The translations under genes and the position numbers were made by a program. This document shows positions 7,309 through 58,362 of a DNA stretch of 64,000 bases, piece by piece. The notes under the pieces were generated by a model. It was not told the DNA's origin. It was given only the letters and a program-made list of their open reading frames with translations, and ran no database searches. The DNA comes from an uncultured Acidobacteriota bacterium (GTDB lineage: Bacteria; Acidobacteriota; Vicinamibacteria; Vicinamibacterales; SCN-69-37). Location of the stretch: NCBI GenBank assembly GCA_963752045.1, contig CAVVWN010000007.1:157961-221960 (forward strand), read 5' to 3'. Positions within the stretch are counted from its first letter, which is position 1, and the number at the start of each line of letters is the position of its first letter.

Positions 7309-9645
7309 ATGTCGCCATTGCCTTCCCTCACACGACCAGACGCGACCGCAACCAGCCGCCTTCGTGCGGCCGTCGTGACGCTCGTCGCAGCGTCCATGGC
7401 GACCCTGCTGGCTATCGCGCAGGATGCGCCCCCTGGATGGCCGCGGACCATCGAAACCCAGGGCTACACGATCACGATGTACCAGCCGCAGACCGACCGG
7501 TTCGAGGGAGACCTGCTCGAAGGACGGGCAGCCGTGTCGATCCGGCGCGCCGGCGGCGGTGACGCGACCTTCGGCGCGGTCTGGTTGTCGGCCCGACTCG
7601 ACATCGACCGCGACGAGCGCCTGGCGCGCGTCCGGCAACTGACGATACCCGACGTGCGTTTCCCGGAAGCCACCGACGAACAACGCCAGCAGCTCGTCCG
7701 CCTCCTCGAAACCGAGGTACCGAAATGGGACCTGACGATCGATCTCGATCGGCTCATTGCCGATCTCGACGATGGTCCCGTGGACGCCAACACGCCGGGC
7801 CTCCGGAACGACCCGCCGACGTTCGTCCACGTCACCGAGCCCACCGTACTCCTGCTCTTCGATGGCCAGCCCGTCGTGCAGGATGTCGAGGGCGGCACGC
7901 CTCTGGAGCGCGTCGTCAATACGCCGTTCCCCGTCGTCCGCGAGAAGGGCGGCGCGACGTTCTACCTGTTCGGCGGAAACGACCTCTGGTACTCGGCCAG
8001 GGAGCCTCTCGGCCCCTGGACGGTCACGACGTCGGTGCCGGCGGCCGTGGCGCGGATCGCCGAGGGCGCAGAGGTCGCCGACCCGATGGTCGACGCGAGC
8101 CAGGCTGCGCCGCCGAAGATCATCGTCGCAACCGAGCCGACAGAGCTCCTTGTCACCGACGGCGAGCCGCGCTGGGCGCCCATCGAAGGCGTCGACCTGC
8201 TCTACTGCGAGAACACGCCGTCGGACGTGTTCCTCGAGATCGCCTCTCAGCGGTACTTCGTCGTCGTCGGCGGCCGCTGGTTTGCCGGCCAGGCCGTGGA
8301 CGGAACCGTCAGGTGGACGCACGTCGCCAATGACGAGCTTCCCGAGGCCTTCTCCGACATTCCGGAGAGTTCGCCCAAGGCATCGGTGCTCGTCCATGTG
8401 GCTGGCACCGTGCAGGCCCGCGAGGAAGCACTCGAGAACGTCATCCCCGAGATTGCCGCCGTGAAACGTGATGCGTCGGCCCCGGCCATCCAGTACGACG
8501 GCGCCCCGGAATTCACGCCGGTCCAGCAGGTCGAGGCGATCAGCTATGCGGTCAACACCGCCGCGTCGGTCTTCAAGGTGGACAACACCTACTATCTCTG
8601 CGACAACGCCGTGTGGTACAGGTCGGCGTCGCCAACCGGTCCCTGGCAAGTCGCCACCGAGATTCCGTCGATTCTCTACACCGTCCCCGCGTCGAATCCG
8701 CATCACAACGTGACGTACGTGCGCGTGTACGACGTCACGCCGCAGGTGGTCTACGTCGGCTATACGCCGGGCTACACCGGGAGTTACTGGTCGCACGGGT
8801 GCGTGGTATGGGGAACCGGGTACCGCTACTACCCGTGGTACGGACCGCACTACTACCCGTATCCCTGGACCTGGGGCCTGCACATGTCCTACTACCCGTA
8901 TGCGGGATGGGGCGTGGGTGTGAGCTGGACGAATGGCCCGTTCCGGGTCACGGTGGGCTGGCGGTCCGGCCCGTACTATCGACCGCCCTATTACGGCGGG
9001 TGGTACGGCCCAGGCGGCTACCGACCGCCGTACCGTCCGTATCCGCCTCCCGGCTACCGTCCGCCGGGCTATCGACCCATTCCGACGCCCTACCCCACGA
9101 CGCGACCCGCAACGCCAGGGGCGCGTCCGATGCCGGCCCCGGTGCCGGCGCGACCTGCCATCTACGACAGGCCGGGCGTATCCGATCGCATGGCCCCAGG
9201 TACCTCGCCCGGCAGCCGGCCGCGGCCTGCTCCGAGTCAGATGCCGAACAACGTCTTCACCGATCCCAGCGGCAACATCTATCAGCGGACACCGAGCGGC
9301 GGGTGGGATGAGCGCCAGGGAGGACAGTGGAAACCGGCCGAGGGTCTCGACCGGCCCGCCGGTCCCACGACGCGGCCTTCTGCACCGGCAACGGGTGGTG
9401 CGTCTGACACACCCACCCGGCAGCCGCGCGCGAGCCAGCTGCCGTCCGGTCGCTCCGGTTCCACACCGGCCGTCCGGCCGCCGACGGCCTCACCTCGACC
9501 GTCACAGCCGATCGTGCGGCCGCCGACTGGCGGCGCGACACGTCCGCAACTCGAACGCGATTCGCGCGCCCGGCAGCGAGGCACGACACGATCCGGGTCG
9601 GCGCCGCCACGCCCGGCCGGACGCGGCGGACGAGGAGGGCGTTAG
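7309..9645 (+). CDS. large secreted protein of unknown function, paralog A (aromatic/Gly/Pro-rich C-terminal region)
   Basis: 778 aa with a signal-like N-terminus. It is collinear with and highly similar to the next gene over about 550 aa, followed by a Tyr/Trp/Gly/Pro-rich segment and a Pro/Arg/Ser/Thr-rich tail. Confidence 0.8.
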   Translation: MSPLPSLTRPDATATSRLRAAVVTLVAASMATLLAIAQDAPPGWPRTIETQGYTITMYQPQTDRFEGDLLEGRAAVSIRRAGGGDATFGAVWLSARLDIDRDERLARVRQLTIPDVRFPEATDEQRQQLVRLLETEVPKWDLTIDLDRLIADLDDGPVDANTPGLRNDPPTFVHVTEPTVLLLFDGQPVVQDVEGGTPLERVVNTPFPVVREKGGATFYLFGGNDLWYSAREPLGPWTVTTSVPAAVARIAEGAEVADPMVDASQAAPPKIIVATEPTELLVTDGEPRWAPIEGVDLLYCENTPSDVFLEIASQRYFVVVGGRWFAGQAVDGTVRWTHVANDELPEAFSDIPESSPKASVLVHVAGTVQAREEALENVIPEIAAVKRDASAPAIQYDGAPEFTPVQQVEAISYAVNTAASVFKVDNTYYLCDNAVWYRSASPTGPWQVATEIPSILYTVPASNPHHNVTYVRVYDVTPQVVYVGYTPGYTGSYWSHGCVVWGTGYRYYPWYGPHYYPYPWTWGLHMSYYPYAGWGVGVSWTNGPFRVTVGWRSGPYYRPPYYGGWYGPGGYRPPYRPYPPPGYRPPGYRPIPTPYPTTRPATPGARPMPAPVPARPAIYDRPGVSDRMAPGTSPGSRPRPAPSQMPNNVFTDPSGNIYQRTPSGGWDERQGGQWKPAEGLDRPAGPTTRPSAPATGGASDTPTRQPRASQLPSGRSGSTPAVRPPTASPRPSQPIVRPPTGGATRPQLERDSRARQRGTTRSGSAPPRPAGRGGRGGR

Positions 9646-9646
9646 C

Positions 9647-11737
9647 ATGGCGTCATTGCAATCACAGGGGCGGCTTCAGCGGACGGCGCAGGGCGGTTTC
9701 CTGCTGGCCTGCCTGGCGGGAGCCCTCGCCGGAACCGTCGCGGTCGCGGCACGTGCCCAGGACGCTGTTCCGGCATGGCCCCGATCGATCACGTCCGGAG
9801 CGTGGGTGGTGACGATCTACCAACCGCAGGCCGACACCTACGAGGGCGACAGGCTCGAGGGCCGGGCGGCCGTCTCGGTCCGCCGGACAGATGGGAGCGG
9901 CGAGCCGATTTTTGGCGCCGTGTGGTTCGCCGCACGCCTCGACATCAACCGCCAGGAACGCATGGCGTACGTCCGGGAGCTCACCGTTCCCGAAGTGCGC
10001 TTCGCCGACTCCACCGAGGAGCAACGCCGGCGGCTCACGGACCTGCTCGAGTCGGAGATGCCGAAGTGGAATCTCTCAATCGATCTCGACCGCCTCGTAG
10101 CGGACCTCGACGCCGGCGAGGCCGATGCTCTGACGGCCGGCCTCCGGCACGACCCGCCGCGGTTCGTCCACTCGATCGAGCCGGCCGTGCTGGTGCTGTT
10201 CGACGGCAAACCCACGGTGGCCGACCTCGAGGGCAGCGTCGGTCTTGAACGTGTCGTCAACACTCCGTATCCGGTGGTCCGGCAGAAGAGCGGCGCCACG
10301 TTCTATCTGTTCGGCGGCAATACGCTCTGGTACTCCGCAGCCGATCCGCTCGGGCCGTGGTCGGTGACGAAGTCGGTGCCTGCACCCGTTCAGCGGATCG
10401 CCGATGGCATCGAGACGGCGAAGAAGGAGACTGCGCCGTCCGACGCTCGCTCGCCACGCATCATCACCGCCACCGAACCGACCGAGCTCATCGTCACAGA
10501 CGGCGAACCGAGCTGGACGGCCATCGAAGGCGTGGACCTGCTCTACTGCGACAACACGTCCTCGGACGTGTTCCTCGAGACCTCGACGCAGCGGTATTTC
10601 GTGCTCGCCGCCGGCCGCTGGTTCGCCGGACAGGCCGTAGGCGACCAGGTGACGTGGGCTCACGTGCCGAATGACGAGCTGCCGGAGGCCTTCTCGGACA
10701 TTCCGGCCGACTCCCCGAAGGGAGCCGTGCTCGTGCACGTTGCCGGAACCGTCCAGGCGCGGCAGGAGCTCGTCGACAGCCGGATTCCGGACATCAGGTC
10801 GGTGCGACTCGGCGCCGCCTCGCTCGCCATCCGCTACGACGGTGAACCGGAGTTCCAGCCCGTGACCGGAGCGGAAGGCGTGAGTTACGCCGTCAATACG
10901 GCCGCGACCGTCTTCAGAACCGGCAACGCGTACTACGCCTGCGAGAACGCGGTGTGGTACCGCGCCGGCGTGCCCACCGGACCGTGGCAGGTTGCGACAG
11001 AGGTGCCGTCGGCCATCTACCTCGTCCCGCCGTCGAACCCTCACTACAACGCCACGTACGTGCGCGTGTACGACGCCACGCCGGAAGTGGCCTACGTGGG
11101 CTACACGCCAGGATACGTGGGGAGCTACGTCTCACACGGCAGTGTGGTCTGGGGCACGGGATGGAGCTACGACCCATGGTACGGCACGAGCTACTACCCG
11201 TTTCCGTGGACCTGGGGCCTGCACATGGGCTACCACCCGTGGTCGGGATGGGGCGTGGGCGTCGGTTGGGCGAGCGGACCGTTTCAGATCACGATCGGCT
11301 GGGTGGCCGGCCCGTACCAGCCGTATTCGTACGGCGGATGGTACGGACCTGGCGGCTTCATGGCGCCGTATCCGCGCGGGCCGGTGTATGTGAATCCCTC
11401 GCCCGGGATGACCGGCATGCAGTTTTCGCGGCCGGGCGTCTACGATAAGCCGACGATGTCAAACCGCGTGGCGCCGCCGCGGCCGATGGGCAGCTACGGG
11501 ATGCGGACCGATTCGGCCGGCACGGCCAACGACGTCTTCACCGACAAGGGTGGAAACATCTATCGCCAGAACGCGAGTGGCGGCTGGGACCAGCGGCAGG
11601 GTGGCACCTGGAACGCGGCCTCTGGCCTCGATCGCGGCTCCGGCACGTCGGCCACCCGCCCCGAGCTCGAAAGCGACGCCAGGGCCCGGTCACAGGGCGC
11701 CACCAGGTCCAGCCAGTTCCGCGGGAGTGGACGCTGA
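9647..11737 (+). CDS. large secreted protein of unknown function, paralog B
   Basis: ORF 8933..11737 trimmed to ATG 9647 (MASLQSQGRLQRTAQGGFLLACLAGALAGTVAVAARAQ), 1 nt after the stop of paralog A. Similarity to paralog A begins right after the signal peptide. Confidence 0.8.
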   Translation: MASLQSQGRLQRTAQGGFLLACLAGALAGTVAVAARAQDAVPAWPRSITSGAWVVTIYQPQADTYEGDRLEGRAAVSVRRTDGSGEPIFGAVWFAARLDINRQERMAYVRELTVPEVRFADSTEEQRRRLTDLLESEMPKWNLSIDLDRLVADLDAGEADALTAGLRHDPPRFVHSIEPAVLVLFDGKPTVADLEGSVGLERVVNTPYPVVRQKSGATFYLFGGNTLWYSAADPLGPWSVTKSVPAPVQRIADGIETAKKETAPSDARSPRIITATEPTELIVTDGEPSWTAIEGVDLLYCDNTSSDVFLETSTQRYFVLAAGRWFAGQAVGDQVTWAHVPNDELPEAFSDIPADSPKGAVLVHVAGTVQARQELVDSRIPDIRSVRLGAASLAIRYDGEPEFQPVTGAEGVSYAVNTAATVFRTGNAYYACENAVWYRAGVPTGPWQVATEVPSAIYLVPPSNPHYNATYVRVYDATPEVAYVGYTPGYVGSYVSHGSVVWGTGWSYDPWYGTSYYPFPWTWGLHMGYHPWSGWGVGVGWASGPFQITIGWVAGPYQPYSYGGWYGPGGFMAPYPRGPVYVNPSPGMTGMQFSRPGVYDKPTMSNRVAPPRPMGSYGMRTDSAGTANDVFTDKGGNIYRQNASGGWDQRQGGTWNAASGLDRGSGTSATRPELESDARARSQGATRSSQFRGSGR

Positions 11738-54787: not shown

Positions 54788-55294
54788 TCAGCGCAGACCC
54801 GCGCGCACGCGCAGGCCGGCAATCCAGCCGGCGATGGCCTCGGACCGATCCGCCGCCGGGACGCTCCCAAAACGGTTCTCGATGTACGCCCGGATCGTCA
54901 CTGCATCTTTGAGCCAGGCCTCGAGCTCGTCCTCACTCATCCCGGCTTCCCCGAGCAGGACCCGCGTATCGACAGCGGGATCGAGCCGCGACCGCCAGCG
55001 TTCGCGTTCGGCGTCGACGAGATCCGGATCGGGCGGCGCGGGATTGAACCGGGCCACCTCGGCCACCATGAGCCAGTGGTTCTCGAGCGCGCGCTGAATG
55101 TCCGCATCGGTCGTCGCCTCGGCCGCGACGAGCTGCAACTGACGAGCCCGTCTCACATCGAGCTGGGTGATCACCTGATTACCCACACGCACGAGCACCC
55201 GGTCGACCTCGACCTGGGCGCCAACAGGAACGGCCGCAACGCCCATCAACACACCCATGACCGCCGAAGCCCACCGTGCCCTCGAAGATCTCAT
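54788..55294 (-). CDS. periplasmic SurA-N-terminal-domain-like chaperone candidate
   Basis: ORF trimmed to MRSSRARWASAVMGVLMGVAAVPVGA (signal). VDRVLVRVGNQVITQLDVRRA resembles the SurA_N start. It lies last in the tamB-bamA gene string. Confidence 0.45.
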   Translation of the reverse strand: MRSSRARWASAVMGVLMGVAAVPVGAQVEVDRVLVRVGNQVITQLDVRRARQLQLVAAEATTDADIQRALENHWLMVAEVARFNPAPPDPDLVDAERERWRSRLDPAVDTRVLLGEAGMSEDELEAWLKDAVTIRAYIENRFGSVPAADRSEAIAGWIAGLRVRAGLR

Positions 55295-55320
55295 CACCAC
55301 CACCCCCGTCGCCGCACCCC

Positions 55321-55415
55321 CGAACCCCGAACCCTCGGACCGTCGGACCGTCGGACCCCCGGACCTTCGGACCCCCGGACCGTCGGACCGTCGGACCCTC
55401 GGACCCTCGGACCTC
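55321..55415. repeat. tandem array of 8-bp unit CGGACCNN: 10 units (55336-55415) preceded by 2 degenerate CGAACCC units
   Basis: Counted by hand. It directly abuts the TAG (55416-55418) of the bamA-type gene and ends 26 nt before ATG 55294 of the next gene. The 8-bp period is incompatible with coding. Confidence 0.95.
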
Positions 55416-58362
55416 CTAGAACGCCTCCCCGATGCTGAAGTGCATCTCCCACAGGCGTTCCGGGCGGCCATTGAAGACCAGGCGGCTCATCTTGAACCCC
55501 ACGTCGAAGCGGAGTGGCCCGAGCGGGGAATCCCACCTGACGCCGAGCCCGGACGTGCCTCGGAGCCGGCCGAGGTCGAGGTCGCCGACCCGTCGGAACA
55601 CGTTGCCGCCGTCGACGAACCCGACCCCGACCAGACGCCGGCCGAACAAGTTACCGATACCGGCGCGCAGTTCCGCATTTACGACGATGACGGCGTTTCC
55701 GCCATTCGACAGACCGTCGTCATTGAGGATCTCCGACACGCCGAGCCGGTCGAGCTGGAAGCCGCGCACGGTGGTGCCGCCGCCGGCAAAGAACCGCTGG
55801 CTGGCTGGAAGGTCGTCGAGCGCGACGTCGGGAATGGGCTCGAAGGCAACCGGCTCCTCGAGCGGCAACCGGCGCTCGGCGGCTCTGGCAAGACCAAGCT
55901 GCGCGCGCGTGGCGAGAATGAACCGGCGATCCTCGGACAGCGGCGTGAACCGGACGGCCTGAAAGAATGTCTTGACGTAGTTGACTTCCGAGCCAATCGC
56001 CGTGAGCGCGGTTTCGATGTCCGCGGTGGCGAACGTCCCGCGCGTCGGCGCCACCAGGCTGTCACGCCTGTCCCACACGACGCCGGTAGAAAGCGTCGAC
56101 AGGCGCACCTGGGGAAAGAGCCGGTCGATGGCCGGCTGGTCCTCCGGAGGGATGAGCTCGTCGAAGAGCTTGGTGAAGTCCAGCCCGTAGCGTCCGGTCA
56201 CGCTGACGGTCGGCGAGACCCGGTGGAGGATCTCGGCGTTGACCGCCCGGCGCAGGAAGTTGAAATTCGTCCGGGTTGCCTGCTCCGACGTGAGGCCGAA
56301 CAGGATCTCCGAGTCGCTGCCAAAAGCGCGCCGTTCGCGATAGGCCACCGTGGTCCGGGTACTCGACGAACCCGAACGTGCCTCCCGAGTCGCCGATTTC
56401 CTTCAGCGTGGCGCGCTTGAGACTGAGCCGCCCGAAGAAGCTCAGGGTGCGGTCGCGCCCGCCGATGTGCCGCCTGGCCAGCTCGACGAAACCCCGCGGG
56501 GCGATCTCGAGCACCTCCTCGATGCGCTGACCGGCGAACGATTGTGGCCGACGGCCGGCCTCGATGCCGCCGCCGTAGCCAACGGTGGTTGCCGGAGCCT
56601 CGTCGACGGAGAGGATCACGTGCGCGCGCATGTCGCCAGGCGGTCTTGGCTGCTCGCTGAACGACGCGCGGGATACGCCGAGCTCCGCCAGCCGTCGCCG
56701 GCTCTCGTTGATGGCCGCCGGGCCGAACGGCTGCCCGGGCTTCAGCATGATGCGTTCGAGGATCGTCTCTTCCGACACCCGCTCGTTGCCGACCACCGTA
56801 ATCTGCGCGACGATGGTCTGGGGCCCTTCGGTGATGTGAAACGTCAGGTCGACGGAGGTGCCTTCGTCGGCGAACACCGGCTCGCGCGCTTCGACCCGAG
56901 CCGCGCGGAAGCCGCGGTCCTGATAGAGCGTCTCCAGATCGAGTCGGTCGAAGTAGACGGCCGCGACCGAGTACGGTTCCCCGGGCCGCGATCGCATCAC
57001 GGCCCGGAGATCGGCTTCGGGAACGACCGCGCTGGCGTCGGCCGGCTCGATCGCCACGGACCGCAGCAGGCCGCGAGGCCCTTCGACGATCTCCGGATTG
57101 AGGGCGAGCCAGGCCTCGGCCGGCGTCGACCTGTCGGCGTCCTCGGTGTACTGGGGTGTCGCCTCGACCGCATAGAAACCCTGCCGCTGGTACTCCAGGG
57201 CGACGCGCTGAATCCCCTGCAGCACGCGGGCATCGTCGACGGGATCGCCCGGCTTGACGCCAATCGCATCGCGAATCACGTCGTCGCCGAGGGCCAGTCC
57301 GGCAGGCAGATCGATACGAGCCAGGCGGTAGCGTCGCCCTCGCGTGACATGAAACGTGATGATGAGCTCGTCTCCCCGCGCCTCCCGCGTGTGGAAGACG
57401 TCGGCCTGCCGGTAGCCATCCTGCTCGAGCGCGCTGCGGATCAACTGGTCGGCGTCCTCGAGGAGATCTTCGTCGGCGAGGCCTTCACGCCGAATCGGGA
57501 CGAGGTCGTCCACGTTGCCACCAGGGCGCGCGTCTCCGGCCCACTCGACGCGAATGCGCGGCCCCGCGCCGATGATGAGCTCGAGATCGACCGCCGTGCG
57601 GTCGGCCGACTCGGTGACCTGGGGGTTCGCGAACGCGGAGTAGTAGCCGAGGCCGCTCAGCTGATCTCGCAGGCCGGCGAGCGCGCTCGAGAGCGCGCGC
57701 GGCCGATACGGGCTGCCTTCGACGGCGCCCGTCCGGTCGCGGATCTGCCGCTCGGAGAGCGGCGACTGGTTGTCGATGGTCACGCTCGCGATGCGGGCCT
57801 GCACACCGGCGTCCACGTCGATCGCGAGCGTCGCCCGTGAAGCACCGGCCGTCCGCACCGTCGCCGCCCGGGCCCGGGCACCGAGAAAGCCCTCGTCGTT
57901 GAGGGCCCGTTCGACGGCCTGCTCCACGTTGCGCAGGTTGGCGTTGGCTGGTGGCAGCCCGCCATACAGGTCGCGAACGTATCGCTGCAGGTCCGCCTCG
58001 GGCACCCCGAGCGTTCCCGCGAATGTGACCCGCTCGATCGGCAGCCTCGGCTCGAGGGCGATGGTGACGATGAGGCCGGCTGGCCCGTCGGCCACGAGCA
58101 GGCGGACGTCGTCGAAACGCGCGAGCCGCCCGAAGTGGTCCATTGTGGTACGAACGTCGACGATCGACAGCGGCCTGCCGACGGTGATCTCGACGAGGTC
58201 GCGCAACGAGCTGTCCGACTGCGGCACTCCCGCGAGCTCGATGCGGATCTCGGCCACGGTCCGGCCCGCAAACGACGCGACCGGGTCCTGCGCGAACGCC
58301 CCGGCCGGCAGAGACGCCGCGAGCAGGCCGACGAGGAGAACGGCAAGCGGGCGCGGACGCAT
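55416..58362 (-). pseudogene. bamA: BamA/Omp85-family outer membrane protein assembly factor, reading frame interrupted by a 1-nt frameshift near 56357-56359
   Basis: ORF 56062..58362 encodes a signal peptide, POTRA-like repeats and the first barrel strands up to ...GGTFGFVEY. ORF 55416..56348 continues in another frame with ...RTTVAYRERRAFGSDSEILFGL... to the Omp85 terminus HFSIGEAF. Removing one C of the CCC run (GGG 56357-56359 on plus) joins them. This could be a true pseudogene or a homopolymer sequencing error. Confidence 0.75.

Follow-up and report, generated by a model that had tools for sequence, protein, structure and literature searches.

The 64-kb stretch of DNA analysed here, referred to as the window, carries on its minus strand a tamB-type gene, a gene of the Omp85 superfamily and a gene for a small secreted protein in direct succession (Table 1). 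The Omp85 gene extends overall from 55416 to 58362 and changes frame once. As written, it is therefore represented by two ORFs, an upstream ORF of 766 aa (56062..58362, minus strand) and a downstream ORF of 310 aa in the next frame (55416..56348, minus strand).

Table 1. Features of the tamB-Omp85 cassette, in window coordinates
Feature	Position	Strand	Evidence or remarks
tamB-type gene, 1389 aa	58362..62531	-	Pfam TamB PF04357 (E=2e-41) and DUF748
5′ part of Omp85 gene, original frame, residues 1-668	56359..58362	-	Signal peptide, seven POTRA, barrel strands 1-3 and first half of strand 4; tblastn, Pfam, model
Frameshift site, coding-strand CCC (plus-strand GGG), one C surplus	56357..56359	-	Between Tyr668 (TAC) and Arg669 (CGG)
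Out-of-frame tail of 766-aa ORF, PDHGGLSRTARFWQRLGDPVRP..., non-coding in that frame	56062..56358	-	GC3, codon log-likelihood
3′ part of Omp85 gene, +1 frame, residues 669-981 and stop	55416..56357	-	Strand 4 (second half) through strand 16, VRGF loop 6, C-terminal Phe; PF01103, alignment, model
8-bp tandem repeat, 12.4 copies, in spacer just 3′ of Omp85 stop	55316..55413	.	Separate from the frameshift; absent from relatives
Gene for small secreted protein, 168 aa from MRSSRARW..., third cassette gene	54788..55294	-	Homologues downstream in relatives

The tamB stop codon and the Omp85 start codon overlap by one base at 58362 in the sequence TGATG, and the same TGATG overlap was found in the related loci L003, L004, L005, L087, L088 and L089. 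This overlap suggests that translational coupling may be conserved in the order tamB then Omp85, which is opposite to the order described in PMC4494059. The C-terminus of TamB is encoded upstream of the Omp85 gene in all 38 relative loci with enough flanking sequence, and in 67 of 74 relative loci a homologue of the small secreted protein follows the Omp85 gene, making this a three-gene cassette. Homologues of the small protein are about 165 aa long, for example at 10957..11457 of L003 and at 10968..11465 of L005. A Pfam search with the 168-aa protein returned no family; our impression is that it may resemble the N-terminal part of SurA.

Two further observations concern the borders of the Omp85 gene. 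The tandem repeat behind its stop codon reads GGTCCGNN on the coding strand with 85% matches, and the spacer of the relatives is just 22-52 nt long. The motif pair of the repeat occurs 10 times within 55316..55413 and at about the level of chance elsewhere in the window. At the other border, TamB (PF04357) is joined to POTRA and Omp85 domains within a single ORF in the database proteins P0051 (1411 aa), P0062 (1670 aa) and P0064 (1642 aa). Given the one-base overlap of the two genes, these may be either artificial fusions caused by a single-base error or genuine ones.

The frame change and its position

The signal peptide at the start of the 766-aa ORF (MRPRPLAVLLVGLLAASLPAGAFA/QDP) is of the typical Sec type, and the ORF reads ...GGTFGFVEY before it runs into PDHGGLSRTARFWQRLGDPVRP... 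and stays rich in Arg, Pro and Gly, whereas the 310-aa ORF in the next frame ends in ...HFSIGEAF. An earlier reading of the letters and ORFs alone (the sequence-only reading) had taken these two ORFs for the halves of a bamA-type gene split by a frameshift within the early barrel strands, and had proposed that deletion of one C would join them. Both proposals held: the ORFs and peptides are present, the junction falls in strand 4 of 16, and removal of one base from GGG at 56357-56359 gives an uninterrupted 981-codon ORF without a stop that reads ...FGFVEYRTTVAYRERRAFGSDSEILFGL.... The downstream frame had been described as open only from a TGA near 56397; that stop codon exists, but its position is 56403-56405.

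The coding signal changes frame at the same place. Between 56410 and 56320 the GC3 of the upstream frame fell from about 0.9 to about 0.5 while that of the next frame rose to about 0.9, and throughout the out-of-frame tail GC3 was about 0.4-0.6 in the tail's own frame versus about 0.9 in the next. The codon log-likelihood over the overlap of the two ORFs was -37.0 in the frame of the 766-aa ORF and +18.8 in the alternative frame, and the optimal switch point was 56351. When the repaired protein was placed on the window by tblastn, residues 1-668 matched from 58362 to 56359 and residues 669-981 from 56357 to 55419.

The repaired protein aligned without gaps across the junction with 15 homologues, and in this 16-sequence alignment Tyr668 and Arg669 were invariant, as were the next Tyr, Arg and Arg of the segment YRERR. 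Because the homologues align in this way and the Tyr and Arg residues are invariant, the frame change is not a product of chance. At the DNA level, five relatives carry GAGTACCG[G/C] at the junction versus GAGTACCCGG in the window, which corresponds to the codons GAG TAC CG[G/C] ACN in the relatives versus GAG TAC C CGG ACC in the window. Since the invariant Tyr-Arg pair and the DNA of the relatives fix the position, the lesion is exactly one extra C (CC to CCC), and the shift, which the sequence-only reading had proposed to locate against homologues, lies between codons 668 and 669.

We compared the junction with 85 related loci, 80 of them fetched from metagenomes. One in-frame tblastn segment without a stop spans the junction in 83 of these loci, and the other two end at a contig edge. 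The sequence-only reading had allowed for the case that homologues share the two-ORF organisation; it was absent from all 83 informative loci, each of which is in a single frame. Among the closest database proteins, 43 of 46 are single ORFs of 956-1006 aa in which the POTRA and Omp85 domains are both present. Two of the remaining three are cut by short contigs, and the third, P0008, is 766 aa long, 100% identical, and is the window's own upstream ORF; its contig, recorded at NCBI and ENA with 319,682 bp, is the sole trace of the source in the databases. NCBI names the relatives 'POTRA domain-containing protein [Vicinamibacterales bacterium]'. A scan of the GTDB species representatives found one relative only, the protein collection had no entry for the exact 310-aa ORF or the exact TamB ORF, and an exact DNA scan of the JGI metagenomes for the junction, run with CC and with CCC, gave no match and no sequence of the same species. 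The extra C is thereby shown to be exclusive to the window sequence. The product of the repaired gene runs on without a seam and takes the expected fold in the model described below.

A tamB-coupled Omp85 paralogue

The repaired 981-aa protein matched the Pfam families POTRA (PF07244, E=1e-52, six stretches) and Omp85 (PF01103, E=1.3e-39). An AlphaFold model of this protein, built from a 55-sequence alignment, was confident (mean pLDDT 87.4) and contains seven POTRA units of the beta-alpha-alpha-beta-beta type followed by 16 barrel strands between residues 592 and 977. The junction between residues 668 and 669 is in the middle of the strand formed by residues 663-677, which is the fourth of the 16. 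The loop-6 motif is conserved as TTVRGFQ in the alignment, and the protein terminates in ...IGEAF. The POTRA repeats, the 16-strand barrel with its VRGF/Y motif and the terminal aromatic residue that mark the Omp85 superfamily are thus all present, the barrel, the motif and the terminal residue only after removal of one C; the gene as written departs from the superfamily in not being one uninterrupted frame, the frame changing at 56357-56359.

Structural searches with the model gave BamA chains as the best matches (E about 1e-46) and TamA as the next (about 5e-33). The protein scored 247.4 bits against TIGR03303, the BamA equivalog model, which is under the cut-off of 297.15, and 81.5 bits against NF047950, the TamA model, which is under the cut-off of 625. 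A canonical BamA has five POTRA domains, and seven are present in our model. With TamA the protein shares adjacency to tamB, but it has neither three POTRA domains nor a score above the TamA cut-off. It does agree with the acidobacterial, tamB-linked type with extra POTRA domains (up to seven) described in PMC4494059. Acidobacteria possess a canonical BamA and a second, TamB-associated copy (Heinz et al. 2015, PMC4494059); the second copy groups with TamA, has seven POTRA domains in some members, and has been reported in the gene order BamA-TamB (PMC4494059). We conclude that the gene is a tamB-coupled seven-POTRA Omp85 paralogue of Acidobacteria rather than a canonical bamA.

The sequence-only reading had argued from the essentiality of BamA. 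Its view of the protein as having an Omp85, BamA-like fold stands, but assignment as the canonical BamA is doubtful, though not disproved, given the equivalog score and the number of POTRA domains. Because genes of this type are described as the second, TamA-like copy beside the canonical BamA in Acidobacteria (PMC4494059), the premise that BamA is essential is unsafe here. A second bamA elsewhere in the genome would be expected whether or not this gene is broken. In some phyla a tamB-linked Omp85 protein is the sole BamA. A tblastn search found no other Omp85 gene and no canonical bamA within the window. One candidate for the canonical bamA of the Vicinamibacterales, P0073, lies in a textbook rseP-bamA-skp-lpxD locus but comes from a member of the Woeseiaceae (a gammaproteobacterium) and was rejected. 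P0060, P0053 and P0065 are linked to TamB or AsmA.

Origin of the extra base

The part of the gene that follows the junction is under strong purifying selection, with no decay, no relaxation and no second lesion. Its dN/dS values relative to three relatives were 0.08, 0.10 and 0.22, and those of the part before the junction were higher (0.14, 0.25 and 0.29). Over the 244 post-junction sites with agreement among at least 6 of 8 outgroups, we counted 8 private changes in the window, all of them conservative, versus 7 in the closest relative, P0002. All invariant columns of the 16-sequence alignment are retained in the window protein. As there is no decay downstream, the origin of the extra C, whatever it was, left no time for a second change.

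We surveyed the rest of the window for frame changes by codon log-likelihood, since GC3 alone was too noisy. All same-strand overlapping pairs of open frames with coding signal on both sides were included, in a test that is blind to shifts reaching a stop within 30 codons. An internal change of frame was seen in just one of the six pairs, that of the Omp85 gene; in the remaining five the coding signal changes over at the stop codon of the upstream frame or close to it. No further frame break was found in a 12-kb block that is syntenic with L005, and none was detectable at the 45 G/C runs of the window (38 of five bases and 7 of six). As the window is clean apart from the Omp85 gene, the assembly is not obviously error-ridden. 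A second frameshift had been suspected at 7309..11737; this region instead contains two tandem paralogues with low-complexity tails. The paralogous genes (7309..9645 and about 9650..11737, plus strand) encode secreted proteins without a Pfam match; in each, a segment rich in Tyr, Gly, Trp and Pro comes after a conserved core and leads into a low-complexity tail rich in Pro and Arg.

Two readings would give the sequence as written a function, and both fare poorly against the relatives and the local sequence. In the first, ribosomes would undergo programmed +1 frameshifting at UAC-C-CGG and so make the full-length protein; a shift at exactly this point would restore it, and a GGGAGG motif is present upstream. 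The shift is absent from all 83 informative loci, however, and the five that were read as DNA carry GAGTACCG[G/C] in frame. On inspection of the sequence, neither tRNA-Tyr (UAC to ACC) nor tRNA-Pro (CCG to CGG) could re-pair after a +1 slip. The A-site codon of the zero frame, CCG, accounts for 62% of the 509 Pro codons, more than any other, so that no hungry, slow or stop codon is present there. The GGGAGG motif lies 19 nt before the Tyr codon, whereas the spacing of the Shine-Dalgarno-like element of prfB is roughly 3 nt, and the RNA structure predicted for the next 107 nt is weaker than in shuffled controls (z = +2.4). The combination found at prfB-type sites, a conserved shift with a slippery P site, a slow or stop codon in the A site and a close stimulator, is thus lacking, and we regard programmed frameshifting as very improbable. 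A run of three C residues is also far too short for transcriptional slippage. It is just as hard to credit that the two ORFs specify two working polypeptides, one a periplasmic protein with POTRA domains only and the other a truncated barrel. Although both ORFs are long and open, the 310-aa ORF (MAYRERRAFG...) has no signal peptide and no Shine-Dalgarno motif ahead of its GTG, and according to the model its product would be short of half of barrel strand 4 and of the three strands before it. At the end of the 766-aa ORF, 98 residues (99 codons including the stop) lack coding signal, and no relative is organised in this way.

The split is probably a one-base insertion error (CC to CCC) in the consensus of a metagenome-assembled contig, the extra base having presumably come from sequencing, assembly or a strain-mixture consensus rather than from the cells. 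A deleterious frameshift in a gene this constrained would be unlikely as the majority allele of a wild population. Four further MAG contigs at ENA, three of which are also at NCBI, belong to one accession series and have contig_N record names. Three of the four contain obvious frame breaks: tamB changes frame about seven times in L087 (2000..6000, about eight pieces), accC is broken once in L088 (1..1351, two pieces), and a distant Omp85 homologue is broken twice in L091 (1500..8100, three pieces). From the naming of the records and the lengths of the contigs, we take these to be presumable long-read assemblies. Indel errors in such assemblies occur about once per 10-100 kb, which has to be set against how rarely a frameshift would become the majority allele of a gene whose dN/dS is near 0.1. 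The contexts of the frame breaks in L087 and L088 showed no clear sequence motif. Counting against an error are the result of the overlap test, in which the Omp85 pair stood alone, and the site itself, which is a two-to-three-base run and no long homopolymer. The sequence-only reading had favoured an error of the homopolymer kind; the error remains the favoured explanation, but CC to CCC is hardly a homopolymer, and the 45 longer G/C runs are unbroken. The main competitor is that the sampled population or strain really acquired one extra base very recently, so that the gene would be a fresh pseudogene tolerated through a canonical BamA encoded elsewhere. The absence of frame breaks from the rest of the window speaks for this possibility, as does the character of the gene, which is no canonical BamA by score and POTRA number and is tamB-coupled in all 38 loci. 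Against it, there is no downstream decay of any kind, canonical bamA is absent from the window, and an unbroken copy of the gene in conserved synteny is present in each of the 83 informative relatives, which implies strong selection for keeping it. We consider a recent mutation unlikely, though well ahead of either functional reading; in the present data it would look identical to a consensus error. Unlikely, too, is the reading in which the extra C is real and the majority allele, so that a wild Vicinamibacterales population would just have lost its tamB-partnered seven-POTRA Omp85 with tamB still intact. TamB would then be able to work with the canonical BamA or alone in this lineage. The order in which the sequence-only reading had ranked its explanations, with an error first and translational frameshifting last, holds; what it lacked was the simple possibility that the frameshift is a real mutation of very recent origin.

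If the favoured explanation of a consensus error is correct, the gene would most likely be one intact 981-codon ORF in the organism. The tamB-coupled Omp85 protein that it encodes would carry a Sec signal peptide, seven POTRA domains in the periplasm and a barrel of 16 strands in the outer membrane, and would be translated directly after tamB by way of the TGATG overlap.

Annotation and relation to known systems

The frameshift is most likely ordinary, a likely consensus error and at most a very recent mutation, with no biological mechanism behind it. Annotators should join the two ORFs or flag the gene as frameshifted, rather than enter a POTRA-only protein and an orphan barrel, and the appropriate label is a tamB-coupled Omp85 paralogue, not an essential BamA. 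Split genes from public ENA MAG sources of the contig_N type should be distrusted by default. Were the lesion real, an uncultured soil lineage would have provided a natural knockout of TamB's Omp85 partner, adding a modest point to the question of which Omp85 serves TamB outside the Proteobacteria.

The frame change resembles the frame breaks of public, presumably long-read MAGs, which are also single-base changes in conserved genes, including tamB and a distant Omp85 gene. Those contigs contain many breaks per 10 kb, however, and the window contains one detectable break in 64 kb.

As to the protein, the TamA of the proteobacterial TAM (NF047950; PDB 4C00 and 8US1) is likewise an Omp85 protein whose gene adjoins tamB and is probably translationally coupled to it, but TamA is a protein of about 577 aa with three POTRA domains, and its gene lies upstream of tamB. 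Canonical BamA (TIGR03303; E. coli BamA, PDB 5D0O) has the same overall plan of POTRA domains and a 16-strand barrel with VRGF in loop 6 and a C-terminal aromatic residue. The gene described here differs from it in encoding seven POTRA domains versus five, in scoring 247 versus 297 bits, and in lying outside any rseP-bamA-skp-lpxD neighbourhood of the kind seen for P0073. The TamB-linked 'duplicated BamA' (PMC4494059) differs in gene order, which is BamA-TamB in that paper and tamB followed by Omp85 here, and the gene in the window is frameshifted as assembled; the two are alike in their occurrence in Acidobacteriota, their coupling to tamB, their seven POTRA domains and their Omp85 barrel.
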